A stretch of 45,384 nt of DNA from a virus. Lineage: Duplodnaviria; Heunggongvirae; Uroviricota; Caudoviricetes. The stretch spans positions 1 through 45,384 of the IMG/VR virus record IMGVR_UViG_2537561934_000012; one strand, 5' to 3'. The notes beneath the pieces are model-generated. The model ran no database searches. It saw only the letters and a list, made by a program, of their open reading frames with translations, and was not told the DNA's origin. Made by a program: the position numbers and the translations under genes. This document shows, piece by piece, positions 1 through 45,384 of the stretch. Within the stretch, counting starts at the first letter, position 1. Each line of letters opens with the position of its first letter.

Positions 1-1131
1 TCAAATGACCAGTTTTTTCCACTCCTTGCCGCGTGCATCGTTGTAAATATCGGTCATTTTTTGATTCGAATGACCCAGCAAAATTTTGGTATCAATTCCC
101 TGTTCTCTGAACAATCTTTCTGATAAAGATCTCTGCTCATGGAAAGAGGGTGGGGTGCCATTAGCACGCCAGTTGTAATCCACAGAATCCCGCGCTTTTT
201 TAAATGCAACAGTTAACGTTGCTGGCTTAACCATCCCGCCGCGCTTAGCTGTCCCTTTCGCGTGATGATGGTGCAATAGCCACGGACTAAGAACGCAATC
301 GCGACAGGATGACACCACATCATCCAGGGTGAGATTTAATTTATCGCAACGCAGAGCCAGAGGGATGGCAATCCGAGTTCCTGTTTTTTGCTGTTCGACA
401 TGAAGATAACCATCCCGGATATCCGAAAACTGCATTTTGCAAATATCTGAAAGGCGCTGGCCTGTCACCAGTGCCAGCAGCATGCCGCGCTGTAAAAAGT
501 AACCATCCTTTTCCGCTGCGTTATAAATCATCATCCACTCATCAAAAGTCAGTCGCTGTCTTGATATCCGCACCTGCGGTTTTTTTGCCGATTCTGCAGG
601 GTTAAAGCCTGGCGGGACATCGCCCGTTTGCTGAGCTTCCCGGAAAACATCGATCAGTACCTTCCTGAAAATTTGTCCCATTCTGTTATGTCCTCTGGCC
701 TTGTACTCTTCCAGCACCGATACCACATCTTTTACGGTGATGGCATCTAACGGTCTGGTGCCAAAACGTTCATCAAATACTCTGAGAGGGGCCGCTTTTT
801 GTTTCAGCGTGTTGAGTTTGATTTCTCCGTTTTCATATCTTTCCTGTTGAATTTTTCTGTAATTATTCAGAAAAATGGAAACAGTTGATGAACCGCCGGT
901 ATCATTAATAATTTTCTCCTGCAGACTGAGCATTTGTTCCATTTGCTGCCTGGCAAGACGGCTGTTCGCTTCTGCTGCAATAGTTTCTGCCAGTTTCTGG
1001 TCAATACTGCCGAGACCGTGATTTTTGCCTGTTATGGGATGCCTGTAACGCCAGTAAACTTTGTTATTTCTTTTGTCAAAATATGGAGACAATCCCGGAA
1101 CATCGGTTTTATATTTTCGCGGGCGCGCCAT
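1..1131 (-). CDS. int: Tyrosine-type site-specific integrase, lambda Int family
   Basis: 376-aa ORF with stop at window positions 1-3. C-terminal half reads like lambda Int (TGQRLSDI..., FHEQRSLSERL..., LLGHSNQKMTDIYNDARGKEWKKL), giving the R...HxxR...H...Y catalytic pattern. Sits at the prophage edge next to an excisionase-like gene. Confidence 0.88.
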   Translation of the reverse strand: MARPRKYKTDVPGLSPYFDKRNNKVYWRYRHPITGKNHGLGSIDQKLAETIAAEANSRLARQQMEQMLSLQEKIINDTGGSSTVSIFLNNYRKIQQERYENGEIKLNTLKQKAAPLRVFDERFGTRPLDAITVKDVVSVLEEYKARGHNRMGQIFRKVLIDVFREAQQTGDVPPGFNPAESAKKPQVRISRQRLTFDEWMMIYNAAEKDGYFLQRGMLLALVTGQRLSDICKMQFSDIRDGYLHVEQQKTGTRIAIPLALRCDKLNLTLDDVVSSCRDCVLSPWLLHHHHAKGTAKRGGMVKPATLTVAFKKARDSVDYNWRANGTPPSFHEQRSLSERLFREQGIDTKILLGHSNQKMTDIYNDARGKEWKKLVI

Positions 1132-3985: not shown

Positions 3986-4189
3986 TTACGGTGCTGTATT
4001 AAATCCTGCCGGGATTTCGGTATTATCCATGCGAATAACTTTCTCGACCGGATAACAGTTACCAGGAATTTTCTGTTCTGCTGCGGCAGCCATACATTCT
4101 TTCATTGAACCATATATACCAGTAACCACATCAACAGGTTCGCCAGTATTGAGAAAAACAGTCAGAGTGAGGGCAACAGCAGTATTCAT
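3986..4189 (-). CDS. Hypothetical early-left-operon protein
   Basis: Likely start at internal ATG (MNTAVALTL...), which overlaps the stop of the upstream gene in an ATGA arrangement suggesting translational coupling. The ORF track extends it to 4243. Confidence 0.4.
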   Translation of the reverse strand: MNTAVALTLTVFLNTGEPVDVVTGIYGSMKECMAAAAEQKIPGNCYPVEKVIRMDNTEIPAGFNTAP

Positions 4190-4374
4190 TGCCAGTATCC
4201 TTTTTGCATCAGACGTAAACGGGCCAGCATTGAAACAATGCAAATTTGATTTAATAACTCCCGTTCGTGTTTTCTCTTATTAATGGCATCTTCAGTAAAT
4301 ACAGGGTTACTGATTCTGACTCCAATTTCAAAACAACCTTCAGACGTATTAACGTTTGGTAATAACGTTTCCAT
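4186..4374 (-). CDS. Hypothetical early-left-operon protein
   Basis: Likely start METLLPNV... preceded by a GAGGA Shine-Dalgarno on the minus strand. The ORF track extends it to 4470. Confidence 0.4.
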   Translation of the reverse strand: METLLPNVNTSEGCFEIGVRISNPVFTEDAINKRKHERELLNQICIVSMLARLRLMQKGYWQ

Positions 4375-4939
4375 TATCGCGTCCTCAACAATGAACTTTG
4401 TGATGCGGTGCCTGGTGCCTCCAGGTGACGTTAACCAGTTAACAATTAACGCCGGATACAGAGAACCCACCCATAAGAACCAATACGGAAGTCAACTGGC
4501 CTTTTTAACTGTTCCGCGTGCGCTGAGCCGCATTCACCGCATCACAAAATTCACTTTAAAAAAGGGCGGACATCAGCCAGCAATGAAAACTGATGCCGCC
4601 AAAAGGTAATCAACATGGGTTGTTGCAGCGGGGTTGTCACTCAGGCGTATGGTCAACCTGACAACCCGGTGTTATCTCGAGGAAAGGATAGCCTCGCCAT
4701 ACTTACCGCCGCGCCATTTCGCGGGTTGCCACAACCGGAAGCGCACGGTCGAATTAAATTTAACGACACCGTACAGTGAGACGAACTTCGCCGTGCGCTT
4801 TCGTGTTGTGCCCTGACTTTTCAGGGATATATCCTTTCAGTAAACTGTCAGTGCCGGATGCTCACCCGTGTCCGGCGCACGCACTCCACCTGACCCGTGG
4901 AGAACTCCTTAATTACCAACCATCAGGAGGGTGAAATTT

Positions 4940-5131
4940 ATGACACAAGAAGAAAAAGTAATGTTTCTTATGCGCCTGGCTGTGGAAACCTTTAACGCCC
5001 ATTGCCAGGTGTCCATTTCACCATCTCACGCCATTTCTCTTGCTACCGAGCAAATGGGGGAGATTGACGTCATTTACGATAAATTTGAAGCATTCCTGGA
5101 TAAGAAGCTTATGGCAGAGAAGCGTCAATAA
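4940..5131 (+). CDS. Hypothetical small protein (63 aa) on opposite strand to the early-left operon
   Basis: ATG at 4940 preceded by AGGAGG at 9-nt spacing (track start 4931 is an in-frame GTG). Convergent with and overlapping the 3' end of the 5109..5714 gene. Confidence 0.45.
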   Translation: MTQEEKVMFLMRLAVETFNAHCQVSISPSHAISLATEQMGEIDVIYDKFEAFLDKKLMAEKRQ

Positions 5132-5714
5132 TCCTCATTACCCATCGTAAATATACAGGAGTGGGCTTGACGTTGTGTTTTTCAAGCTCGCTCTTCATTA
5201 CTTCCTGCAACTTTGAGCTGATAATAAACAAATCAGGTTTATCGTTATTATTTTTATCAGCATCGTCTTTTTTTGTTTTCGACTCTTGTGGTGAATGTTC
5301 GAAAGTAACTTGCAGGGTATTATTTTTAGCGTCCGCAGAGCCTAAAGTATGTGCATATGGATGTGCTATTGTGCGCCCTCGCAGATTTGCATCATTTTCT
5401 AAATTCACTGAACGAAACAGGGCATCAACAAGGCTCTGTACAATGCAAAGGCAATCGAAGACTGTCGCTGTTTCTGTTTTGATTGATGAAAGAACATGGC
5501 CATTCAGGCAAACAGAAATTACCCGTTCATTAACATCGCTTTCCCGCTTTTGATTATCAGAACCATATAGCCCGGTAAACGCATCGCGCACATTACGAAC
5601 CATATTATCGATGGTTTCTTTTTTTGCGGATCCCGGTTTAATTTCCACCAGGCTATCGCTAAGTGTCGTTGCAGCAATTGTCTGGATTTCTTTTGGTAAA
5701 TCTTTAAATTCCAT
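5109..5714 (-). CDS. Hypothetical protein (201 aa), AT-rich accessory gene in early-left region
   Basis: Long ORF in visibly AT-rich DNA. No transmembrane segment or recognisable motif. C-terminal acidic/Lys/Asn-rich stretch. Confidence 0.5.
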   Translation of the reverse strand: MEFKDLPKEIQTIAATTLSDSLVEIKPGSAKKETIDNMVRNVRDAFTGLYGSDNQKRESDVNERVISVCLNGHVLSSIKTETATVFDCLCIVQSLVDALFRSVNLENDANLRGRTIAHPYAHTLGSADAKNNTLQVTFEHSPQESKTKKDDADKNNNDKPDLFIISSKLQEVMKSELEKHNVKPTPVYLRWVMRIIDASLP

Positions 5715-5736
5715 TATTAGCCTCGTTGGTCAGCTA

Positions 5737-5955
5737 TTAACGTGGGTATGTAACCATTCTGGCAATGCTTAATGCCGCTGCTTTTTCCAGCCTGGTGATA
5801 TCCTGCTCCAGAGCGGACAGATTTTCAGCCTGCTTAGCCCTGGCTTCATTGGCCCATTTCAGGTCCTGCGCTGCCATAATTTTCTGGCGCATCCACTCAT
5901 AAAGCTCATCATCGGTATAGTCTGGCGCGATGATGACGGGTTCTCGTTTCTGCAT
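5737..5955 (-). CDS. Hypothetical small protein (72 aa), coiled-coil-like
   Basis: ORF with GAGG Shine-Dalgarno upstream on the minus strand, in the early-left operon. Confidence 0.45.
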   Translation of the reverse strand: MQKREPVIIAPDYTDDELYEWMRQKIMAAQDLKWANEARAKQAENLSALEQDITRLEKAAALSIARMVTYPR

Positions 5956-5985
5956 ACTGAATTCCTCGCGGTGATGTTTCGCTTA

Positions 5986-6114
5986 TCAGCCGTTATATTT
6001 TGCCGAACTGGAAAGCGCCTGTTTAAACTCACTGAAGCTGAGAGCTTCTTCGCCTTCGGCAAGGCCTTCGAAGTATTCTTCGTAAGCCTTTTCCATGATT
6101 GCGTCGAAATCCAT
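5986..6114 (-). CDS. Hypothetical small protein (42 aa), below ORF-track threshold
   Basis: ATG preceded by a GGTGAG Shine-Dalgarno-like sequence on the minus strand. Tightly packed between the flanking genes. Acidic product MDFDAIMEKAYEEYFEGLAEGEEALSFSEFKQALSSSAKYNG. Confidence 0.3.
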   Translation of the reverse strand: MDFDAIMEKAYEEYFEGLAEGEEALSFSEFKQALSSSAKYNG

Positions 6115-6115
6115 A

Positions 6116-6271
6116 TCACTCACCTGAGTTTCTTTCCAGCCAGCGACGAGCGCCAGTTTCGGTTTTAAACGTTTTGCTTTTGGTATACGTCATCGCGGTG
6201 AATGTGCCGTCCTGGTTGGGAAACACGCCGTATACCAGAGATTCGTTGTTGCCAAGATCGATAGTATCCAT
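6116..6271 (-). CDS. Small early-left protein (51 aa), Rac YdaF-like
   Basis: Likely start MDTIDLGNNESL... with a GAGG Shine-Dalgarno upstream. Resembles the remembered 51-aa Rac YdaF. The track ORF extends to 6349. Confidence 0.45.
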   Translation of the reverse strand: MDTIDLGNNESLVYGVFPNQDGTFTAMTYTKSKTFKTETGARRWLERNSGE

Positions 6272-6439
6272 GCTGACCTCATTTCCCCTTAACGCCGGGG
6301 TAGCGGAACAAAAACCTGCTGCATAGTTAAAGTTGAACCCTGCCGTCATGTTCTTACGCCTCGGGCTGGCTACTTACCCCCTGACCACTGCCTGGTAACT
6401 CGAAGTATTGCCCTGCGTTCTGTGGGGTGGGGTGGGTTG

Positions 6440-6500
6440 GTATGCAATAAATCTAAAAGTATTTAGTTTTATAGTCAAGGGGAATCTAAATTAATTTAAA
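6440..6500 (-). promoter_or_regulatory. PL-like leftward promoter with OL-like operator half-sites
   Basis: On the minus strand: TTGACT (plus-strand 6473-6478), 17-nt spacer, TAGATT (plus-strand 6450-6455). Repeated AATCTAAA half-site motif also found in the OR region. Confidence 0.4.
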
Positions 6501-6524
6501 AAAAAGGTCGGTATAACCGACCTT
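6498..6524 (-). terminator. Rho-independent terminator downstream of the repressor gene
   Basis: On the minus strand: GGTCGG stem, 5-nt loop, CCGACC, followed by a run of 8 T. Confidence 0.55.
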
Positions 6525-6545
6525 AAGTTCAAGGACATGGCAGTG

Positions 6546-7193
6546 TTATAGGTTGAACTGTACACCTTTTGCTACGGCAACAATTTTACACTCTGGCGTA
6601 AGCAAGGATGATTGATAGCGCGGATTGAGAGGGCTTAAATACACAAGTTTTCCATCAATAACTAATTTTTTTATAGTCATAGACGGTTCATTTGTAAGTG
6701 GATCTGGAACTATTACAGCGACAATACTGCCATTTTTATAACTTTCTCCTGGTCTTAGGATCACAGTGGCACCAACCGGGATACTCGGCGACCCTGAGGG
6801 GTTATGCATAGTGTCATCAGGCATTGAAACGGCAAAATCACCTTCCACTACATCAAAGAATGTGGTGATCCTATCGACATTTCCCATTGTTTTCTCTCCT
6901 TCTAAGATTAGGAAAGAAATCGCGTCACCCCACGAAAAGTAGGGGATCTTGGTGCCTGGATTGCTCTGCACAAAAGATAGTTCAGGAGACGATACTCCAT
7001 ACAGGAGATAGGACTCAGTAGTTCCTAATGCTTGAGCTAACTTACTTAGAGCTTTGCTGCCGGGTTCGTTTAGATCTTTCTCCCAGTACCCTATAGTAAC
7101 CCCAGTCACGCCTGAAAGCTTACCCAGTTCTACTTGGGTGAGTCCCTTATCTTTTCTGAGTTTCTTAAGCCTGATGCCAAGGCTTTCCATCAT
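6546..7193 (-). CDS. cI: CI-type phage repressor (HTH plus LexA/S24-like autocleavage domain)
   Basis: 215 aa. N-terminal HTH (LKKLRKDKGLTQVELGKLSGVTGVTIGYWEKD) and C-terminal S24-peptidase-like region. Divergent from the cro-like gene across an operator region. Confidence 0.85.
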   Translation of the reverse strand: MMESLGIRLKKLRKDKGLTQVELGKLSGVTGVTIGYWEKDLNEPGSKALSKLAQALGTTESYLLYGVSSPELSFVQSNPGTKIPYFSWGDAISFLILEGEKTMGNVDRITTFFDVVEGDFAVSMPDDTMHNPSGSPSIPVGATVILRPGESYKNGSIVAVIVPDPLTNEPSMTIKKLVIDGKLVYLSPLNPRYQSSLLTPECKIVAVAKGVQFNL

Positions 7194-7289
7194 TTTCTCC
7201 CGCGAGTTGAATATAAATTATTTTAGATTGCATTGACCTAAAAAAAATTATCCTGTAATCTAAAAATACTTAGATTTTAGGAGAGTGAA
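7194..7289. promoter_or_regulatory. OR-like operator region with PR-like rightward promoter and presumptive PRM
   Basis: TTGACC (7233-7238), 17-nt spacer, TAATCT (7256-7261) upstream of cro. Three copies of the TTTTAGATT / AATCTAAAA half-site motif, including a palindrome CTAAAAATACTTAGATTTTAG. Confidence 0.5.
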
Positions 7290-7517
7290 ATGCGAGTTGA
7301 TGAACTTGTTCAGTTTTTTGGCTCTGTTCAGAGGGTCGCTGATTTTTATGGGATAACCCGCGAAGCTATTTACATGTGGCGTAAGCGCCCCGGTGAAATA
7401 GTTCCGAAAGGGAGAGCTGCGGAAGCTGCCGCATACTCCAAGGGAAAATTATCTTTGAACCCAGAGCTTTACAAAAAGAAGGATACCACTCAGAGCGAAA
7501 GGAAGAGTGATTCATGA
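7290..7517 (+). CDS. cro: Cro-like regulator (Rac YdaS-like HTH protein)
   Basis: 75 aa, divergent from cI, AGGAG Shine-Dalgarno upstream. Stop overlaps the next start (ATGA). Confidence 0.65.
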   Translation: MRVDELVQFFGSVQRVADFYGITREAIYMWRKRPGEIVPKGRAAEAAAYSKGKLSLNPELYKKKDTTQSERKSDS

Positions 7518-7939
7518 AAATCAAGCATGAACACATCCGCATGGCGATGAATGCCTGGGCGCATCCGGATGGTGAAAAAGTTCCGGCAGCTGAAATAACC
7601 CGGGCTTATTTTGAGCTGGGTATGACGTTCCCGGAACTGTATGACGACAGCCATCCGGAAGCCCTGGCTCGCAATACTCAGAAAATTTTCCGCTGGGTGG
7701 AGAAAGACACCCCTGATGCAGTTAAAAAAATTCAGGCGCTCTTACCAGCGATCGAAAAGGCAATGCCACCTCTGCTGGTGGCCCGAATGCGCAGCCACAG
7801 TTCAGCCTATTTTCGGGAGCTGGTGGAGACACGGGAGCGACTGGTGAGAGACGCTGATGATTTTGTCGCAGTGGCAATCGCCGGTTTCAATCAGATGAAC
7901 CGCGGTGGCCCGGCAGGAAATGCTGTGGCAGTGCATTGA
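7514..7939 (+). CDS. cII-position regulatory protein, Rac YdaT-like
   Basis: 141 aa, translationally coupled to cro, in the position of lambda cII. Resemblance to YdaT is from memory. Confidence 0.4.
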   Translation: MKIKHEHIRMAMNAWAHPDGEKVPAAEITRAYFELGMTFPELYDDSHPEALARNTQKIFRWVEKDTPDAVKKIQALLPAIEKAMPPLLVARMRSHSSAYFRELVETRERLVRDADDFVAVAIAGFNQMNRGGPAGNAVAVH

Positions 7940-8004
7940 CTGACAATAGCCATATCGAATCGCTTCCGGCAACTCGTGAGTAAAAAGATTCGGTATCAGA
8001 AGAG

Positions 8005-9081
8005 GTGAGTATGGCTAACGCCTGGCTCAGATTATGGCATGACATGCCAAATGACCCTAAGTGGCGAACAATTGCCAGGGTGTCAGGGCAGCCAATTGCA
8101 ACAGTGATGGCAGTGTATATCCACCTCCTGGTGAGCGCGTCACGAAATGTCACGCGAGGTCACATTGATGTCACGACAGAAGATTTGGCAAGTGCGCTCG
8201 ACGTGACAGAAGAGGTAATTGATTCAATTTTGCAGACGATGCAGGGGCGGGTACTTGACGGTGATTTAATCACTGGATGGGAAAAACGCCAGGTGCTGAA
8301 AGAGGACAACGGCAATATTTCGCAAACCGCAAAATCTCCTGCAGAGCGCAAGAGGGCGCAGCGAGAGAGGGAAAGAAAGCGGGAACAAAATGGCAATTGT
8401 CACGGCGCGTCACGAAATGTCACGCACATGTCACGACGAGTCACGACAGATAAAGATACAGATAAAGATACAGATCAAGAAGATCAAAACACTATGGTCC
8501 ATGGCGTAAAAAACGCCACGAACCAGGCAGGGGATGTTCAGACCGTCAATCCTGGTCAGCCAGCAGGCACGACACCGGAAGCCGATTCAGCGTATGCGCT
8601 GAAAGCCGATTCGGGCGCTGTGCAGCAGGTGATGACCGCAAGGCCGGAGCAATCACACCAACTGCAGCAGCCTGAAGCCGATTCCGCCATTCAGCGGGAA
8701 GCCGATCGGGTAGTCCCGGAAAACACCGGGCAGCCTGTGAGACGAGTGGATTATCCGGATGTGTTCGAACAGGTCTGGCGGGAATACCCGCTGCGTGCTG
8801 GGGCAAACCCGAAGAAATCCGCTTTCAGTGCCTGGAAGGCCAGATTACGCGAGGGGGTGTCACCAGAGGCCATGCTGGATGGCGTGAGGCGTTACGCAAG
8901 ATACCTTGCGGCTACCGGGAAAACGGGAACGGAATTTGTTCAGCGAGCGACGACGTTTTTTGGACCGGACCGGAATTTTGAAAACCCCTGGCTGCTCCCG
9001 GTAAGCGGCACGAACAACCAGCGTTGTGTGAATCATATTTCTGAACCGGATACCGAAATTCCACCGGGCTTCAGGGGGTAA
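8005..9081 (+). CDS. Replication initiator (O-like / replisome-organiser-type) with internal origin iterons
   Basis: 358 aa, in the lambda O position. Contains two clusters of four GTCACG repeats at roughly 10-bp spacing inside the ORF. Track start is GTG at 8005; ATG at 8011. Confidence 0.6.
   Translation: MSMANAWLRLWHDMPNDPKWRTIARVSGQPIATVMAVYIHLLVSASRNVTRGHIDVTTEDLASALDVTEEVIDSILQTMQGRVLDGDLITGWEKRQVLKEDNGNISQTAKSPAERKRAQRERERKREQNGNCHGASRNVTHMSRRVTTDKDTDKDTDQEDQNTMVHGVKNATNQAGDVQTVNPGQPAGTTPEADSAYALKADSGAVQQVMTARPEQSHQLQQPEADSAIQREADRVVPENTGQPVRRVDYPDVFEQVWREYPLRAGANPKKSAFSAWKARLREGVSPEAMLDGVRRYARYLAATGKTGTEFVQRATTFFGPDRNFENPWLLPVSGTNNQRCVNHISEPDTEIPPGFRG
8135..8186. repeat. Iteron cluster 1 (4 x GTCACR at about 10-bp phasing)
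   Basis: GTCACG at 8139, 8149, 8170 and GTCACA at 8159. The 21-bp stretch GCGCGTCACGAAATGTCACGC recurs exactly at about 8405. Confidence 0.55.
8405..8490. repeat. Iteron cluster 2 plus adjacent AT-rich GATAAAGATACA tandem repeat (putative origin)
   Basis: GTCACG at 8409, 8419, 8430, 8440, followed by GATAAAGATACA x2 and GATCAAGAAGATCAA. Confidence 0.55.
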
Positions 9082-9121
9082 GTGTTGATTTCTGGTCATG
9101 AGGTAATTTTCAGGAGGACTT

Positions 9122-9544
9122 GTGGCAAAAGTTTTTACACAAGAAGAGCGAGAAAAAATTAAAGGGCAGGTTGTTGAACTCGTACGCCAGAGTGGGCGCG
9201 AGACGTTACGACAACTGGAAGCTAAGACAGGTGCGACAAGATATCTGATGAGCATTCTTGCCAGAGAGTTGGTTGCCAGTGGTGATGTATACAACTCTGG
9301 CTATGGGTTATTTCCCTCTGAACAGGCTCGTAAGGATTGGCAAAACGCCCGCAAAAAACTATCCAGGGCAAAGGTGAAAAAAACGGTTGTGGTTGATCCT
9401 GACCTTATCTGGTCGTTACCAGACGGCGAAATACGCCGCTACGACAGGCGCCTAAACATAATCTGTCGCGAGTGCCGGAAGAGTGAAGCTATGCAGCGCG
9501 TACTGGCGTTTTATCAGGGGAATTTTGAGGAGGAGGTGCGGTGA
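9122..9544 (+). CDS. Hypothetical replication-module protein (140 aa)
   Basis: ORF following the initiator. Its stop lies 4 bp before the IS left end. No helicase-loader motif recognised. Confidence 0.4.
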   Translation: MAKVFTQEEREKIKGQVVELVRQSGRETLRQLEAKTGATRYLMSILARELVASGDVYNSGYGLFPSEQARKDWQNARKKLSRAKVKKTVVVDPDLIWSLPDGEIRRYDRRLNIICRECRKSEAMQRVLAFYQGNFEEEVR

Positions 9545-9619
9545 GTGATGACCTGCTCCCCGTTGATTAGTACACCCCGATGTTAGTAATGTCTTCATAA
9601 GCCACATGAGGACATCCCC

Positions 9620-9883
9620 ATGAAGAAGCGTTTTTCCGACGAACAGATCATCAGTATTCTCCGCGAAGCCGAAGCTGGGGTACCCGCCCGTGAACTCTGC
9701 CGCAAGCATGCCATTTCCGATGCCACGTTTTACACCTGGCGTAAGAAGTATGGCGGTATGGAGGTGCCTGAAGTTAAGCGCCTGAAGTCGCTTGAGGAAG
9801 AGAACACCAGACTCAAGAAGCTGCTTGCCGAAGCCATGCTGGATAAAGAGGCGCTTCAGGTGGCTCTTGGGCGAAAGTACTGA
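9620..9883 (+). CDS. IS3-family transposase OrfA (HTH and leucine-zipper-like region)
   Basis: 87 aa [20 protein letters not shown]..., typical of IS3-family OrfA proteins. Confidence 0.85.
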
Positions 9884-9906
9884 CGACAGACCAGAAGCGG
9901 GAAGCC

Positions 9907-10740
9907 GTGATGTTGATGTGTGATGCGACCGGTCTGTCGCAACGTCGTGCCTGCAGGCTTACAGGTTTATCCCTGTCGACCTGCCGCTATGAGGCTCACC
10001 GTCCGGCTGCTGATGCGCATTTATCAGGGCGCATCACTGAGCTGGCACTGGAGCGCAGGCGTTTTGGCTACCGTCGTATTTGGCAGTTGCTGCGCCGTGA
10101 AGGGCTTCATGTTAATCATAAGCGCGTGTACCGGCTTTATCACCTCAGTGGCCTGGGCGTAAAACGCAGAAGACGTCGTAAAGGGCTGGCAACAGAACGT
10201 CTGCCGCTGCTCCGTCCGGCGGCGCCCAATCTGACCTGGTCGATGGATTTCGTCATGGACGCACTTTCCACCGGTCGCAGGATCAAGTGTCTTACCTGCG
10301 TCGATGATTTCACAAAGGAATGCCTGACGGTCACTGTTGCCTTTGGGATTTCAGGCGTTCAGGTCACGCGTATTCTGGACAGCATTGCACTGTTTCGAGG
10401 CTATCCGGCGACGATAAGAACTGACCAGGGGCCGGAGTTCACTTGCCGTGCACTGGATCAATGGGCCTTTGAGCATGGTGTTGAGTTGCGCTTAATCCAG
10501 CCGGGCAAGCCAACGCAGAACGGATTTATTGAGAGCTTTAACGGACGATTTCGCGATGAATGTTTGAATGAGCACTGGTTCAGCGATATCGTTCATGCCA
10601 GGAAAATTATTAATGACTGGCGGCAGGATTATAACGAATGCCGCCCGCACTCCACGCTGAATTATCAGACACCGTCTGAATTTGCAGCGGGCTGGAGAAA
10701 GGGTCATTCTGAGAATGAAGATTCCGACGTTACTAACTGA
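9907..10740 (+). CDS. IS3-family transposase OrfB (DDE integrase core); expected to be made as an OrfAB -1 frameshift fusion
   Basis: DDE/rve-like core (...TDQGPEFTC...[32 protein letters not shown]...). Reading frame is -1 relative to OrfA. Confidence 0.85.
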
Positions 10741-10855
10741 GTGTTGTATCTAATCGTGGGGGCAGGTCAGTGAATCAAAATGCCAGGTTAATGGCAACAA
10801 GATAGAACCATGCGCAGCACTGGCAAAGTCCCTTGAGCATGATGCTGAATACACG

Positions 10856-11020
10856 ATGCGAAAAGGTCTGCTGATATACAAAATCTGGAATGAGAGTTTA
10901 ACTCGCGGTCCTGATTTTGTGATGTTGCGTTCCGGTGAATTTTCTAAATTACCAGTTCGGGTTTCATTTTGTCCGTTCTGTGGTGAAAGTCTGAAAACGT
11001 GGGAGAACAGAAATGAATGA
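10856..11020 (+). CDS. Hypothetical small protein (54 aa) with a CPFCG motif, below ORF-track threshold
   Basis: ATG ORF ending 8 bp into the next gene; product ...VSFCPFCGESLKTWENRNE. No clear Shine-Dalgarno. Confidence 0.2.
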   Translation: MRKGLLIYKIWNESLTRGPDFVMLRSGEFSKLPVRVSFCPFCGESLKTWENRNE

Positions 11021-11324
11021 AATTAAAGAAATACCAGTAGAACGTGATGAATATGGCTGCTGGGCACATCCTGAATATGAGAAATTCTGTGACGGTCGGG
11101 AATATATTTCAACGGAAGAGTTTAACGCCTGGATGGAGGAAAATAATCTTCAATACGTCCTCTGCTTCAGAGATGAAGGATGTGCTGACCTTGATGCGTG
11201 TGATGCTGATATTTCTGCATGGGAACCGGAACGACCAGAGGGCAATGGATGGTTTATTGGTTCAATACATGACACCGAAGATGGCCCGATTTGTGTATGG
11301 CTGAGAAATAAGGCCGAAGCATAA
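11013..11324 (+). CDS. Hypothetical acidic Cys-containing protein (103 aa)
   Basis: ORF downstream of the IS. Several Cys and His residues (CWAHPEYEKFCDG...CFRDEGCADLDAC). Confidence 0.45.
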   Translation: MNEIKEIPVERDEYGCWAHPEYEKFCDGREYISTEEFNAWMEENNLQYVLCFRDEGCADLDACDADISAWEPERPEGNGWFIGSIHDTEDGPICVWLRNKAEA

Positions 11325-11629
11325 AGGCTATAAACCGACTAACAACTAAATACTGAAGATTTAAATCAGAAACGATTTTTATTAAATCCTTAACCGGAGG
11401 GATTCTGCACCCTCAGAACATCAGGAGGCCGTCTGAAAGGGCGGAACAGATAATGCTTACGTTGAAAAATTTTATCGACATACCAACATGGTTAGCCGTC
11501 ATTGCTTTTGTTAAAATACACATCCACTTTTCTGTGCAATGTTTAACCACTGGTCATATCAAATGGCATTCATGCGAACCATGATATAGAATCATGGCTT
11601 GAGAGAGTCGATGAAAGCGCAACTATGGT

Positions 11630-12208
11630 ATGAGAGACATTGATGTAAGAAAGGCTGTGCATGCCAAGATTCTGAGAGATCATCATAAAGATCCTGACAC
11701 CCTAATCATTGATGAGTTTACGATGAATCTAGGGGCTAGCAGAGCTGATATAGCAGTGATCAATGGGCTTATACATGGTTATGAGTTGAAGAGCAAGAGT
11801 GATAACTTGCTCAGATTACCAGCGCAGGTGCAACATTACTCATCAGTGATGGATAAAGTAACTTTGGTTGTCTCTGATTGCCATCTTTATGATGCTTTAA
11901 GCATAGTTCCATCATGGTGGGGGATAAAGCAAGTTACGCAAGGTGCACGGCAAGGTATCCATTTAAAAACAATTCGAACTAGCAAGTTGAATCCACAAGT
12001 GGACAAACTTTCCTTAACAATGCTTCTTTGGAAAGATGAATTGCTTTCCCTATTAAGTGATGTAGGGGAGCTACAGAATTTGAAAAATAAACCTAAACGC
12101 GTCTTATGGTCAAAACTCGCCAATAGTATGGATGTTGGCGAGCTTCGTGAAGCTGTTCGAGTTAAACTTAAAGCCCGTAAAGAGTGGCGAGTTGCTCAAC
12201 AACCTTAG
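11630..12208 (+). CDS. PD-(D/E)xK-type predicted nuclease (192 aa), candidate defence component A
   Basis: Motif arrangement IIDEF ... RADIAVINGLIHGYELKSK (D, then E-x-K about 12 residues later) typical of restriction-endonuclease-fold proteins. AT-rich gene. Recalls the database family label sce7726 (from memory). Confidence 0.55.
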   Translation: MRDIDVRKAVHAKILRDHHKDPDTLIIDEFTMNLGASRADIAVINGLIHGYELKSKSDNLLRLPAQVQHYSSVMDKVTLVVSDCHLYDALSIVPSWWGIKQVTQGARQGIHLKTIRTSKLNPQVDKLSLTMLLWKDELLSLLSDVGELQNLKNKPKRVLWSKLANSMDVGELREAVRVKLKARKEWRVAQQP

Positions 12209-13265
12209 TTATGTGATGGTTTTGCCCAATCCTACGCCATACCTCTGGGCTACCAAATTTATAGTTACCAGAGGGATTGGCTTTGTAGGCTTGATACTCG
12301 TTTGCATAATATTCTATGTCTCTATCTCCCGCACAGAATGTAGGCCCTGAATATTCTCGATGAGCAAGAATATCCTCACTATGTTTACCATATTGTTCAT
12401 AACCAAAGCGATTAGCTACTCTTCCTCGAAATACCCAAAAGTCATTATCTCCAGAGTATCTGACGCTGGCAGATACGCTAGGGAATCGCGTCGAAAGCCT
12501 ATTAAAGTCGGGGTGCTGTACTCCATAATCACTATAAATCACATTTCTGGCAAGTTCTTTTCTATTCATTAAACTCTGCCATAAAATCCACTCGATTCGA
12601 GGTTGAGAATATAGACCAACAGAAATATCACTGAGATCTGTAGGAAATGAACCCCCAGAAAGAATCACTTTTCTGTATTCATTGAGGTGCGCCAGATTGT
12701 TTATCAATCCCATTGCCAAAGTATATAGTTCGCCGGAATTAAGTTTATCCTCGGTTAACTCATCTCTTAAGTCAATAATTATATCAATATTTGATAAAGG
12801 AATTCCCAGATGATTAATGTAATGCGTTATTAATTGTGGGTTAACCAGATCTAACGTGGTTAATCTCAAGCATATTTCATTCTGCATTAATTCATCAATC
12901 GCTCTTTTATAGTTAGATGGGCGAGTTGGTGAACTGACAGGAATAACTCTTATCCCCATATCTCTAACTTGATTAACCGCATTTATTATAGGGTAATGAT
13001 CTTCAGGAGAAATAAAATGCTCTTCAATTAATAATCCATCAATATAAACACCTTGCATATCTGAGCAAGATTTTGAGACTTTCTTTCCGAACTCTATAAG
13101 AGTCTCGTTATAACTCTTTAAGGCAATACCTGAATCAGGGTCAATTGGCACTGGTTCAATTTCGAGTAATGGCAAAATTTTTGATTTCTTTTCAATGGAT
13201 AGCTGCGATAAAGCTGATAACTCAGAACGTTTCGCTTTCAGAATAGGAATATATGAAATTGTCAT
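12168..13265 (-). CDS. Hypothetical protein (365 aa), candidate defence component B, convergent partner of the PD-(D/E)xK gene
   Basis: Long ORF in AT-rich DNA with an AAGG Shine-Dalgarno. Its 3' end overlaps the partner's 3' end by 41 bp on the opposite strand. Recalls the sce7725-type partner family (from memory). Confidence 0.55.
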   Translation of the reverse strand: MTISYIPILKAKRSELSALSQLSIEKKSKILPLLEIEPVPIDPDSGIALKSYNETLIEFGKKVSKSCSDMQGVYIDGLLIEEHFISPEDHYPIINAVNQVRDMGIRVIPVSSPTRPSNYKRAIDELMQNEICLRLTTLDLVNPQLITHYINHLGIPLSNIDIIIDLRDELTEDKLNSGELYTLAMGLINNLAHLNEYRKVILSGGSFPTDLSDISVGLYSQPRIEWILWQSLMNRKELARNVIYSDYGVQHPDFNRLSTRFPSVSASVRYSGDNDFWVFRGRVANRFGYEQYGKHSEDILAHREYSGPTFCAGDRDIEYYANEYQAYKANPSGNYKFGSPEVWRRIGQNHHITKVVEQLATLYGL

Positions 13266-13822
13266 GTTAATACCTTATACAGAATCAATTAACAATTAAT
13301 GGTTCTTCGGACATTGAAATTTATATCGCAAAAATTGGCAAACTCTCCTCGACTACTCACTTGTGGGTATCCTGGCGTAAAAGGAATGACTTGGCAATAC
13401 CCGGTGTGATCATAAGTCATTGAAAATGATCATTTTTATCAGTCTTTCTTCCATGATGAATGCTAATGCCATTTGATTTGTTGAGGTAAAAAGTGTTAAA
13501 AATCAAAACGATGTAATTGAAATGAACGTTCGGTAGCATTCACGCTTTAAATGTTTCTTTTGTGCTGATTGGATGAATTTTGGTCACTTATGATGAGAGA
13601 TGTTGCAGGAAAAGAAGTTGGCATTGATCTATTGGATAGTTAGAATTGCTGCGGGTGCTTGAGGCTATCTGCCTCAGGCATGAACACCAAAAGGCAGATA
13701 GAGAAAAGCCCCAGTTAACATTACGCGTCCTGCAAGACGCTTAACATTAATCTGAGGCCCAATCTATGTCTCACAAATGTAGGTTAGCCTCTTACGTGCC
13801 GAAAGGCAAGGAGAAGCAGGCT

Positions 13823-13978
13823 ATGAAGCAGCAAAAGGCGATGTTAATCGCCCTTATCGTCATCTGTTTAACCGTCATAGTGACGGCACTGGTAACGAGG
13901 AAAGACCTCTGCGAGGTACGAATCCGAACCGGCCAGACGGAGGTCGCTGTCTTCACAGCTTACGAACCTGAGGAGTAA
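13823..13978 (+). CDS. hokD: Hok/Gef-family type I toxin (51 aa), HokD/RelF-like
   Basis: Product MKQQKAMLIALIVICLTVIVTALVTRKDLCEVRIRTGQTEVAVFTAYEPEE matches the remembered HokD sequence. Single transmembrane helix. An in-frame upstream extension starts at 13766. Confidence 0.8.
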   Translation: MKQQKAMLIALIVICLTVIVTALVTRKDLCEVRIRTGQTEVAVFTAYEPEE

Positions 13979-15487: not shown

Positions 15488-15859
15488 ATGCGTATAGAGT
15501 TTGTTTTGTCTTACCCGCCGACGGTGAACACCTACTGGCGACGCCGTGGCAGCACATATTTTATCTCTGAGGAGGGAAAGCGTTATCGCCGGGCTGTGGC
15601 GCTTATTGTTCGCCAGCAGCGGCTGAAATTAAGGCTGTCCGGAAGGCTGGCGATAAAGGTGATTGCAGAGCCACCGGATAAGCGTCGTCGCGACCTGGAC
15701 AATATCCTGAAAGCACCGCTGGATGCGCTGACGCATGCGGGAGTGTTAATGGACGATGAGCAGTTTGATGAAATCAATATTGTGCGCGGTCAGCTCGTTC
15801 CTGGTGGTCGGCTGGGCGTGAAGATTTACGAAATTACAGGTGATAACGATGGCGCGTGA
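15488..15859 (+). CDS. rusA: RusA-type Holliday junction resolvase
   Basis: 123 aa. [12 protein letters not shown]...[29 protein letters not shown] matches the RusA pattern, including the conserved DxD and DD acidic residues. Confidence 0.8.
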
Positions 15860-16235
15860 TATTCAGCAGGTTATGGAGCGGTGGGGAGCATGGGCTGCAA
15901 ACAATCACGAAGATGTGTCATGGGAGTCAATAGCTGCTGGTTTTAAAGGATTAATCCCGCCGAAAGTGAAATCACGCCCTCAGTGTTCTGATGATGATGC
16001 AATGATAATTTGTGGCTGCATGGCCCGGTTGAACAAGAAAAATCAGGATTTGCACGATTTGTTGGTGGATTATTACGTAGGTGGAATGACTTTTATGGGG
16101 CTGGCACGAAAGCATGGGTGTTCGGATACCTGTATTGGCAAGCGCCTGCAGAAAGCGGAAGGGGTTATTGATGGCATGTTGATGATGCTTGATATCCGAC
16201 TGGAGATGGACAGATACGTAGAACGAATCATGTAG
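15840..16235 (+). CDS. quuD: Late-gene antiterminator Q (phage-82 / QuuD-like)
   Basis: 131 aa. [23 protein letters not shown]...[19 protein letters not shown]...[26 protein letters not shown] closely matches the remembered DLP12 QuuD. Confidence 0.8.
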
Positions 16236-16239
16236 GAGC

Positions 16240-16356
16240 TTGACCAGACACATTGTCCGGGGCTATATTTCCGACGCAACCGCAAAATCGGTTGTCGGGA
16301 TTAGCACCCCGGATGTTTACGGAGCGATATGAGGCGCGCCCGCGTCTTTTTTCATA
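16240..16356 (+). promoter_or_regulatory. Putative late promoter (PR-prime-like) with downstream Q-responsive terminator-like hairpin
   Basis: TTGACC (16240-16245), 18-nt spacer, TATATT (16264-16269) just after Q. GC-rich element followed by T6 at about 16331-16352. Confidence 0.35.
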
Positions 16357-16516
16357 TCGTTTGCACAGTCATATTCGCGATTTATGGCGGGCTGTGTGGG
16401 GGAGCCGAAAGGCTCGCCGGTTTCCGTACCCGGTAGTGCTAACCCCGCACAGTTCGCCACCACGATGATTAGCACCTGACGGTGGCGATAATGTCCAAAT
16501 GTACGGAGTTATCGTT

Positions 16517-17104
16517 ATGACCACTCAGATTTCTGTCGAAACTCTTTCCCCAATTACACACAACCAAATTCCCGTTATCACTACCGAGTTACTGGCACAG
16601 CTTTACTGTACCGATATCAACAACATCAAAGTAAATTACACCCGTAATTCCGAGCGTTTTGTTGAGGGTAAACACTTTTTCAAGGTTGTTGGTGATGAGT
16701 TGAAAAATTTGCGGGTTACTTTAAGTAACTCACAAAATTTGCAACCATCTTTAAGAGGGTTACAAATTCCCCCGAAAACCCGCTCCCTTATCCTCTGGAC
16801 AGAACGCGGAGCAGCCCGTCATGCCAAAATGCTGGAAACCGATCAGGCGTGGGATGTGTTCGAAAAACTGGAAGACTGTTATTTCAGCCAGAAACAGCCA
16901 CCAGCAGCACAAAACTCCCCAACACCAAATGATGGATGCGCATTGCTGATCCACTTCGATAAACATGGTCAGGTCGAATTCACGGAAAAAGTCCCCGCCG
17001 ATGCGATGGTATGCACTCTGGAACGGTTTAAATTTTATCTGGAGCAATACGGCTGGATCGTTGCCCGTAAAGAGCAACTGGTGGAACGACTGATGAGGCT
17101 TTAA
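16517..17104 (+). CDS. ORF6N-domain-like protein (antirepressor/DNA-binding family), copy 1
   Basis: Start MTTQISVETL preceded by GGAG. N-terminal region (ITTELLAQLY...NIKVNYTRNSERFVEGKHFFKV) resembles the ORF6N pattern. An inverted paralogue lies at 44689..45252. Confidence 0.55.
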   Translation: MTTQISVETLSPITHNQIPVITTELLAQLYCTDINNIKVNYTRNSERFVEGKHFFKVVGDELKNLRVTLSNSQNLQPSLRGLQIPPKTRSLILWTERGAARHAKMLETDQAWDVFEKLEDCYFSQKQPPAAQNSPTPNDGCALLIHFDKHGQVEFTEKVPADAMVCTLERFKFYLEQYGWIVARKEQLVERLMRL

Positions 17105-17401: not shown

Positions 17402-17477
<76 letters not shown>

Positions 17478-17480
17478 TAT

Positions 17481-17555
<75 letters not shown>

Positions 17556-41157: not shown

Positions 41158-41769
41158 ATGCGCCATATTTTATTTTTTGTCGCTTTTCTGGCAGGAATGG
41201 CCCTTCCTGCGCAGGCTGAAGTCGGACACGGTGCGTTTTCCGTGGGATATGCTCAGGTTCACCCGGGCGGCGTGCCGGCATTGTCCGGTACCGGTGCCCG
41301 TACAGGTGATTTAAAAGGGATTAACGTGAAATACCGTTATGAATTCACGGACCATGCGGGTGGTATTGTTTCGCTGAGTTATGCGTCGGCGAAAAAAAGC
41401 GACACGATGAAGACGGGTGAAAATACGTTCCATTATGAAAGCCTGCGCGGTCGTTATGTGAGTCTGATGGCCGGCCCTGTCTGGCAGGTCAGTGAGCAGG
41501 TCAGTCTCTATGGCACGGCTGGGATGGCTTACACCCGCTGGTCTGACAGTGTTCAGGATTACCGACGTGATGAATTGAAACCGGGGTATGTGAAGGAGAC
41601 GACCACCGCCAGTGATGGCTATACCGCACGACACCTGTCGCTGGCATGGGGTGCGGGTCTTCAGTTCAGCCCGGCAGAAACGGTGACTATTGACCTTGCT
41701 TATGAAGGCTCCGGCAGTGGTGACTGGCGCACTGACGGTTTCATCGTGGGTGTCGGTTATAAGTTCTGA
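41158..41769 (+). CDS. lom: Lom / Ail-family outer membrane beta-barrel protein
   Basis: Signal peptide (LAGMALPAQA). C-terminal ...GVGYKF. In the lambda lom position. Confidence 0.85.
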   Translation: MRHILFFVAFLAGMALPAQAEVGHGAFSVGYAQVHPGGVPALSGTGARTGDLKGINVKYRYEFTDHAGGIVSLSYASAKKSDTMKTGENTFHYESLRGRYVSLMAGPVWQVSEQVSLYGTAGMAYTRWSDSVQDYRRDELKPGYVKETTTASDGYTARHLSLAWGAGLQFSPAETVTIDLAYEGSGSGDWRTDGFIVGVGYKF

Positions 41770-45252: not shown

Positions 45253-45384
45253 AACGATAACTCCGTACATTTGGAAATTATCGCCACCGACGACGCCAAT
45301 CGAACTGGTGGCGAACTGTGCAGGGTTGGCGTAACCGGGTACGGAAACCGGCGAGCCTTTCGGCTCCCCCACACAGCCCGCCAT

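Follow-up and report, generated by a model that had tools for sequence, protein, structure and literature searches.

Prophage context of the element

The window, that is, the whole stretch of DNA analysed here, comprises 45,384 nucleotides and corresponds to positions 1 to 45,384 of IMG/VR record IMGVR_UViG_2537561934_000012. It is a mosaic lambdoid or Rac-like prophage, in which an integrase, a LexA-type repressor, a YdaT/CII-like gene and a replication initiator are followed by a DUF977 gene and then by an insertion sequence (Table 1). Downstream of the insertion sequence lie small genes, a convergent pair (sce7726-like and Beta_protein), hok/sok, DUF968, RusA and the Q antiterminator gene, with lysis and structural genes beyond. 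The insertion sequence is co-oriented with the early-right operon and is found approximately 5 kb upstream of Q.

Several neighbouring features of this prophage can be described. The sce7726-family gene (11630-12208, + strand) belongs to phrog_984, with a precomputed Pfam hit to Phage_P4_cII in L085, and overlaps by 41 bp the convergent Beta_protein gene (PF14350; 12168-13265, - strand). The pair, which is common to E. coli ST866 and looks like a moron or defence-type cassette, is inserted in the nin-like region, after the replication genes and before hok/sok. Rfam models place a sok antitoxin RNA at 13653-13828 beside a hokD-like gene, and isrK (16276-16352) followed by a C4 antisense RNA (16380-16464) directly upstream of an anti-repressor-like gene (16499-17104, ORF6N). 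A second Rfam match to C4, on the - strand at 45304-45384, is cut by the end of the window. Phage-borne tRNA-Thr(TGT) and tRNA-Gly(TCC) are located at 17402-17555, downstream of Q and the anti-repressor gene.

Table 1. Features of the insertion locus and of the surrounding prophage (positions in the window).
Feature	Position	Strand	Evidence or remark
Integrase	1-1131	-	
LexA-type repressor	6546-7193	-	
YdaT/CII-like gene	7514-7939		
Replication initiator	8005-9081		Followed by the DUF977 gene, then the insertion sequence
DUF977 gene, intact, upstream of the element	9122-9544	+	phrog_142 'Ren-like exclusion protein', E = 2e-47
5' stub of the 84-aa gene (start codon and 5 nt)	9541-9548	+	Reads into the element: 9 aa, VSDDLLPVD*
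Left target duplication GTGA	9545-9548	.	Sequence; empty-site alignment with a single GTGA
ISSen4, complete, 1221 bp, IS3 family, IS407 group	9549-10769	+	100% identity to annotated copies
Left inverted repeat (IRL), TGACCTGCTCCC..., imperfect	9549-9593	+	Similarity to the right end traceable for ~45 nt
orfA, 87 aa, HTH_Tnp_1 DNA-binding protein	9620-9883	+	Pfam PF01527, E = 1.5e-23
orfB frame (HTH_21, rve and rve_3)	9847-10740	+	Pfam; predicted as a 373-aa OrfAB fusion
Frameshift element, Rfam RF00383 (IS1222_FSE)	9850-9967	+	cmscan
Predicted -1 frameshift site G_CGA_AAG	9871-9877	+	Codon table; PMC5009743; relatives
Right inverted repeat (IRR), ...GGGGGCAGGTCA	10725-10769	+	Inverted-repeat pair, gapped alignment, 12-mer search
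Right target duplication GTGA	10770-10773	.	Sequence; empty-site alignment
Remainder of the 84-aa gene, start-less and promoterless	10772-11020	+	phrog_4030, CPFC motif
Q antiterminator gene	15840-16235		Lysis and structural genes beyond

Identity of the insertion sequence

Along all of its 1221 bp, on the + strand, the body of the element shows 100% identity to RefSeq copies named "IS3-like element ISSen4 family transposase". By the ISfinder convention, isoforms share at least approximately 95% nucleotide identity; here, judged on the RefSeq-named copies, identity to ISSen4 is complete over the 1221 bp. ISSen4 copies elsewhere have the same ends, the same orfA and orfB and the same frameshift region, and they too can be flanked by duplications of 4 bp, as are the copies of E. 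coli MB56 (GTGG and GTTA). The copy in the window differs from them in its insertion site only.

Family assignment was supported by protein models, as the OrfAB fusion scored 308.4 bits against NCBIfam NF033516 transpos_IS3 (cut-off 160), the curated model of the IS3 family, versus 140.9 bits against the IS481 model, under its cut-off of 224. A scan of genomes yielded 80 relatives of the element. Identical copies were observed in Morganella, Enterobacter and Kluyvera, relatives in Erwinia and Pantoea have a protein identity of approximately 86-93%, and those in Burkholderia are 1236 bp long with a transposase identity of approximately 62%. This spread, from identical copies to the 62% of Burkholderia, is consistent with the placement of the element in the IS407 group, and the record of phage mEp234 calls the product of an identical orfA an IS407 transposase. 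Among 5426 complete E. coli genomes, 412 contain a copy with at least 80% coverage of the element, in chromosomes as well as plasmids, and E. coli C has 20 places that match it. The object is an ordinary one: the insertion sequence, present here in complete form, is known, and so is its curated frameshift element.

Ends, target duplication and empty site

The initial annotation, made from the letters of the window, described an intact-looking IS3-family element of about 1221 bp with imperfect terminal inverted repeats, a 4-bp GTGA target duplication and OrfA and OrfB in a -1 frame relationship. All of these descriptions hold under closer analysis, with the model score and ISSen4 identity given above placing the element in its family, and zero differences over 1221 bp, open frames and a whole DDE triad bearing out its integrity. 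The termini TGACCTGCTCCC and GGGGGCAGGTCA, when paired as inverted repeats, agree at 11 of 12 positions, the outermost 8 being identical, and gapped alignment extends a patchy similarity between IRL and IRR to approximately 45 nt. Exact matches to the terminal 12-mer were found at both ends in a search allowing one mismatch, for which shuffles of the window gave an average of 0.41 matches. Imperfect terminal inverted repeats of the form 5'-TG...CA-3' are those expected of the IS3 family, and the two ends here have this form. The same search returned a third match with one mismatch, TGACCTGCTCAC, on the - strand at 41492-41503 inside a tail-region ORF; the surroundings of this site hold no IS-like sequence, and the match is probably due to chance.

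Related prophages provide the uninterrupted site that the initial annotation had proposed to look for. The empty prophage site of E. coli AVS0501 has GTGA once, and in a three-way alignment the two flanks from the window overlap on precisely these 4 bases; the uninterrupted ST866 prophage has a single GTGA as well. GTGA is therefore a true duplication and not a chance repeat. A 1 kb empty-site query, consisting of the window flanks with 9549-10773 removed, was at least 80% covered in 185 complete E. coli genomes, and the best 24 of these 185 gave full cover in a single uninterrupted alignment at approximately 95% identity. Duplications of 4 bp are characteristic of the IS407 group and of ISSen4. 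Within a sample of 43 full-length relatives with both flanks readable, an exact 4-bp duplication was present in 14, against a chance expectation of approximately 0.2, and duplications of 3 bp or of at least 5 bp in none.

Two features of the target may be recorded. The target GGTGA|GTGA (9540-9548) resembles the right end of the element with its duplication, GGTCA|GTGA (10763-10773). In the ISSen4 clade, five of six duplications begin with G (GTGA, GTGG, GTTA, GGTG and GTAG, versus CGAG), which may reflect a target preference in what is a tiny sample (n=6).

The insertion disrupts a conserved phage gene

The TGA stop codon of the DUF977 gene occupies 9542-9544, so the target duplication begins at the immediately adjacent base. 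This stop overlaps the GTG start codon (9541-9543) of a second gene of 84 aa, which is annotated in the prophages of AVS0501 and ST866 that lack the insertion, where it overlaps the DUF977 stop by 4 nt (GTGA). The element is inserted after the eighth nucleotide of this gene. In-silico excision, joining 9541-9548 to 10774-11020, restores an 84-aa protein that is 100% identical to the ST866 homologue and that has exact matches on at least 1000 contigs. Against PHROGs it matches phrog_4030 (function not assigned) with E = 2e-39. With the insertion in place, the first in-frame start codon remaining is the ATG at 10856, which would leave 54 aa. Because its start codon and first 8 nt are cut off, the 84-aa gene, which is coupled in translation to the DUF977 gene, should be inactivated, and a knock-out of a conserved phage gene is the most likely outcome suggested by the sequence.

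The position given at the outset, 1 bp after a replication-module gene, is accurate with respect to the intact DUF977 gene; the site is also within the 84-aa gene and is thus not only intergenic. Likewise, the label of replication-module gene fits the DUF977 gene by position only, since PHROGs names its family 'Ren-like exclusion protein'. The gene sits where ren stands in lambda, after the replication genes.

Coding frames and catalytic residues

A GAGGA Shine-Dalgarno-like motif can be read 7 nt upstream of the orfA ATG. The orfB frame is open from 9847 and ends at a stop codon at 10740, and by the codon table it overlaps orfA by 37 nt (9847-9883) in the -1 relationship. Two overlapping ORFs in the 0 and -1 frames, of which OrfA has a helix-turn-helix domain and OrfB an rve (DDE) domain, form the arrangement by which the IS3 family is recognised. 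The exact sequence of the constructed 373-aa OrfAB fusion was absent from the protein collection, so the junction codon of annotated fusions may differ slightly from the one chosen here.

The catalytic triad of OrfAB consists of D210, D269 and E305; 35 residues separate the last two, and R312 follows the E by seven residues. A DD(35)E triad with K or R seven residues after the E is again typical of the IS3 family. None of these four residues varies among 57 unique relatives, whose identity ranges from 50 to 95%. A search of PDB sequences aligned the triad with the D, D and E columns of the integrase of prototype foamy virus (PFV), which we take to be its residues D128, D185 and E221. Loss of the DDE triad from OrfB had been named beforehand as an observation that would count against an intact element, and the triad is in place.

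On the + strand between 9300 and 11100, no consensus sigma-70 promoter for orfA reached the threshold of the scan. A weak promoter candidate, TTGATT-16-AGTAAT, can be picked out by eye at 9563-9590.

The predicted programmed frameshift element

The initial annotation had noted that no A6G heptamer is present at the OrfA/OrfB overlap and had suggested a search for the frameshift signal and downstream structure. The heptamer is indeed missing from the overlap, where the search found instead the hexanucleotide signal G_CGA_AAG, followed by a 9-bp stem. The codons at the end of orfA are GGG CGA AAG TAC TGA, which places CGA_AAG in the orfA frame at 9872-9877, with the AAG codon (9875-9877) followed by one sense codon and then the stop. 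IS1222 makes its transposase by -1 frameshifting at G_CGA_AAG (PMC5009743), and the lack of a slippery heptamer would be explained by use of this documented hexanucleotide.

The whole region matches the Rfam family RF00383 with 156.6 bits, compared with a gathering score of 45, over positions 1-118 of the 118 in the model and with no non-canonical pairs flagged, and it holds both the CGA_AAG motif and the downstream stem. In the Rfam consensus, 9884-9892 (CGACAGACC) pairs with 9931-9939 (GGUCUGUCG) to form the 9-bp stem, which encloses two small hairpins and begins 6 nt downstream of the AAG shift codon. The minimum-free-energy fold contains the same stem. When its arms were shuffled, the duplex energy of the stem in the window corresponded to z = -3.05, whereas the fold of the whole 98-nt region (z = -0.67) was no more stable than shuffles; support for the stem therefore comes from the match to Rfam and from the test specific to its arms. 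In a cruder comparison based on the number of paired bases in minimum-free-energy folds, the excess over controls was modest (87% observed versus 48%). RefSeq labels identical copies 'programmed frameshift'.

Conservation of the signal was assessed in 53 unique relatives that passed a filter for NNA_AAG/A followed by one codon and a stop, with 3 loci excluded. The motif is at a fixed position in 53/53, as the filter requires. It reads CGA_AAG in 38 of them, GGA_AAG in 9, CAA_AAG in 2, GGA_AAA in 2, GUA_AAG in 1 and AAA_AAG in 1, and the layout of NNA_AAG, one codon and stop is kept in relatives down to approximately 50% OrfB identity. For the 14 nt directly 3' of the orfA stop, downstream pairing beats 95% of arm shuffles in 41 of the 53 relatives. 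The 3' arm of the stem lies in alignment columns 63-71 in the ISSen4 clade and in columns 88-103 in others; with its position varying by clade, no single dot-bracket string can represent all of the relatives, and it seems that the structure persists through changes of sequence and register. The 5' arm (columns 16-27) stays right after the orfA stop across relatives of the IS407 group, with the 3' arm at two places. Some copies from Erwinia and Pantoea have GGUCUGUC at both of the 3'-arm places, making two alternative pairings possible.

An additional stimulator was considered and rejected. The optimum for -1 stimulation by a Shine-Dalgarno sequence is approximately 10-14 nt. The Shine-Dalgarno-like AGGUGG at 9858-9863, taken as a dnaX-like stimulator, is only 7 nt before G_CGA_AAG.

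Distribution and age of the insertion

A query across the junction of the occupied site was nowhere covered to 80% or more in the 5426 complete E. coli genomes, and the exact 28-nt left junction is absent from IMG/VR and from the JGI metagenomes. Across all searches, the same junction was recovered in two NCBI draft E. coli assemblies only (GCA_000354735.2 and GCA_000354615.2), the draft assemblies being reached by an exact-protein look-up of the neighbouring replication gene. Contig AQEW01000007.1 of GCA_000354735.2 is 100% identical to 4011-13081 of the window (9 kb) and probably represents its source or a sibling of it. A third contig with the same replication protein, L087, has unrelated sequence after DUF977 and is uninformative on the site. 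A junction limited to two drafts, together with zero divergence of the element from other copies, fits a recent, lineage-specific insertion, in line with the initial view of a fairly recent event, drawn from the preserved duplication.

A candidate for the same insertion in E. coli MB56 (74% cover) was rejected as a different event, downstream of a different DUF977 allele. In this genome (NZ_CP073936.1), ISSen4 is present at 4587-5807 (+) and 6871-8091 (-) of excerpt L002, and the two copies, in opposite orientation, flank a hypothetical ORF of 963 bp approximately 160 bp downstream of that allele. Each MB56 copy has its own duplication (GTGG and GTTA, respectively), so these are independent insertions into one prophage neighbourhood and not a single composite transposon.

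A further copy, 100% identical, lies between int and bet in the cultured lambdoid phage Escherichia phage mEp234 (PV340539.1; 2148-3368 of excerpt L084), where the annotation names nothing but hypothetical proteins. This copy lacks a target duplication (its flanks are CTCG and CAAC), a pattern suggestive of an adjacent deletion or of recombination between copies.

Interpretation and alternatives

The locus is almost certainly to be read as a complete, probably active copy of ISSen4, an IS1222-like element, that entered a lambdoid or Rac-like prophage of E. coli by transposition, with duplication of GTGA at the target. The identity, ends, duplication, empty site, frameshift element and catalytic residues are directly observed, and present-day activity of this copy is probable given the integrity of its sequence and the behaviour of its family. 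In the proposed mechanism, orfA would be translated into a small helix-turn-helix protein, and a minority of ribosomes would slip by -1 at G_CGA_AAG, with the lysine tRNA re-pairing from AAG to AAA and the stem-loop 6 nt downstream helping the slip. How often this occurs in the window copy would presumably follow the family. The resulting OrfAB transposase, predicted to combine the DNA-binding domain with a DDE (RNase H-fold) catalytic domain, would act on the TGACCTGC...GCAGGTCA ends, and by analogy with the IS3 family transposition may proceed as copy-out/paste-in via a circular intermediate.

A dead relic, IS-like but immobile and flanked by GTGA repeats through coincidence, is a very improbable reading. 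Target duplications are missing in 24 of the 43 related copies, so rearranged copies are common in the group; the window copy, however, shows zero differences over 1221 bp from copies in hundreds of genomes and at 20 places in one strain, has both frames open, a full-length frameshift element and an intact DDE triad, and is flanked by a GTGA that the empty-site alignment shows to be truly duplicated. It is just as hard to credit that ribosomal frameshifting has no part in producing the transposase, which would then come from OrfA and OrfB made separately or from transcriptional slippage. Some members of the IS3 family do produce OrfB separately, and here a GTG at 9907 opens a 277-aa ORF spanning the catalytic domain. 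Transcriptional slippage is known from A-rich runs of at least 6, and the A run at the site, at 3 nt, is too short for it. Arguing against both routes, relatives conserve the motif together with its spacing from the stop and the downstream stem, Rfam curates the region as a frameshift element, the RefSeq label of identical copies says the same, and -1 frameshifting of IS1222 is reported at the identical motif (PMC5009743).

For the complete, probably active ISSen4 copy, there is also the question of its effect on the phage. The insertion might be functionally important, either by blocking early-right transcription before Q, which might lock the prophage in, or by putting the transposase under phage pR, which would tie transposition to induction. 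The element has the orientation of the early-right operon in which it lies, with the replication genes before it and Q after it, and the directly coupled downstream gene is left without its start. Even so, such importance is unlikely. A consensus scan found no intrinsic-terminator-like site on the + strand between 9300 and 11100, uninterrupted relatives already have the convergent minus-strand Beta_protein gene between the site and Q, and the viable phage mEp234 carries an identical ISSen4. A polar effect, as suggested in the initial annotation, is conceivable, e.g. by Rho-dependent termination in the untranslated stretch after orfB. Less probable still is that SOS de-repression of pR would read into orfA and increase the amount of transposase, coupling ISSen4 transposition, or its packaging and phage-borne spread, to induction, while the insertion might also dampen Q and the genes beyond it.

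These results bear mainly on annotation. The appropriate label for the region is a complete ISSen4 with a transposase produced via a predicted programmed -1 frameshift at CGA_AAG, and the phrog_4030 gene should be marked as disrupted, instead of a 54-72-aa remnant being annotated as a gene. The absence of an A6G heptamer is no argument against frameshifting in IS407-group elements. As its junction was recovered from no more than two draft assemblies, the insertion is useful for marking the lineage of the prophage or strain, and it adds one more case of IS traffic into lambdoid prophages.

Comparison with known systems

A close comparison is with IS1222 of Enterobacter/Pantoea agglomerans, a distinct named element from ISSen4 that was compared here via RF00383 and its published shift site. 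The shift site G_CGA_AAG is the same in both, and the window matches the IS1222_FSE model over its full length with an identical 9-bp stem. IS1222 is presumably of the same length, 1221 bp, and of the same group as the element in the window. The primary paper on its frameshifting appeared in J. Bacteriol. in 2004.

IS407-type elements of Burkholderia (1236 bp) are more distant. Their transposase is approximately 62% identical to that of the window element, and both have ends of the TGACCTGC type, 4-bp duplications and the layout of NNA_AAG, one codon and stop. Their shift site is GGA_AAG whereas that of the window is CGA_AAG, and the 3' arm of their stem lies approximately 25-30 nt further downstream (columns 88-101 versus 63-71).

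IS911, IS150 and dnaX use the heptamer A_AAA_AAG, whereas in the window element only the A-site tRNA can re-pair well. IS911, IS3 and IS150 resemble the window element in having OrfA and OrfAB, a DDE transposase and short target duplications. In these elements and in dnaX, the lysine tRNA slips from AAG to AAA in the -1 direction with the help of a downstream structure, as is known for the family (PMC5009743). Re-pairing in the A site only, as expected for the copy of ISSen4 in the window, is associated with relatively low-level frameshifting (PMC5009743).
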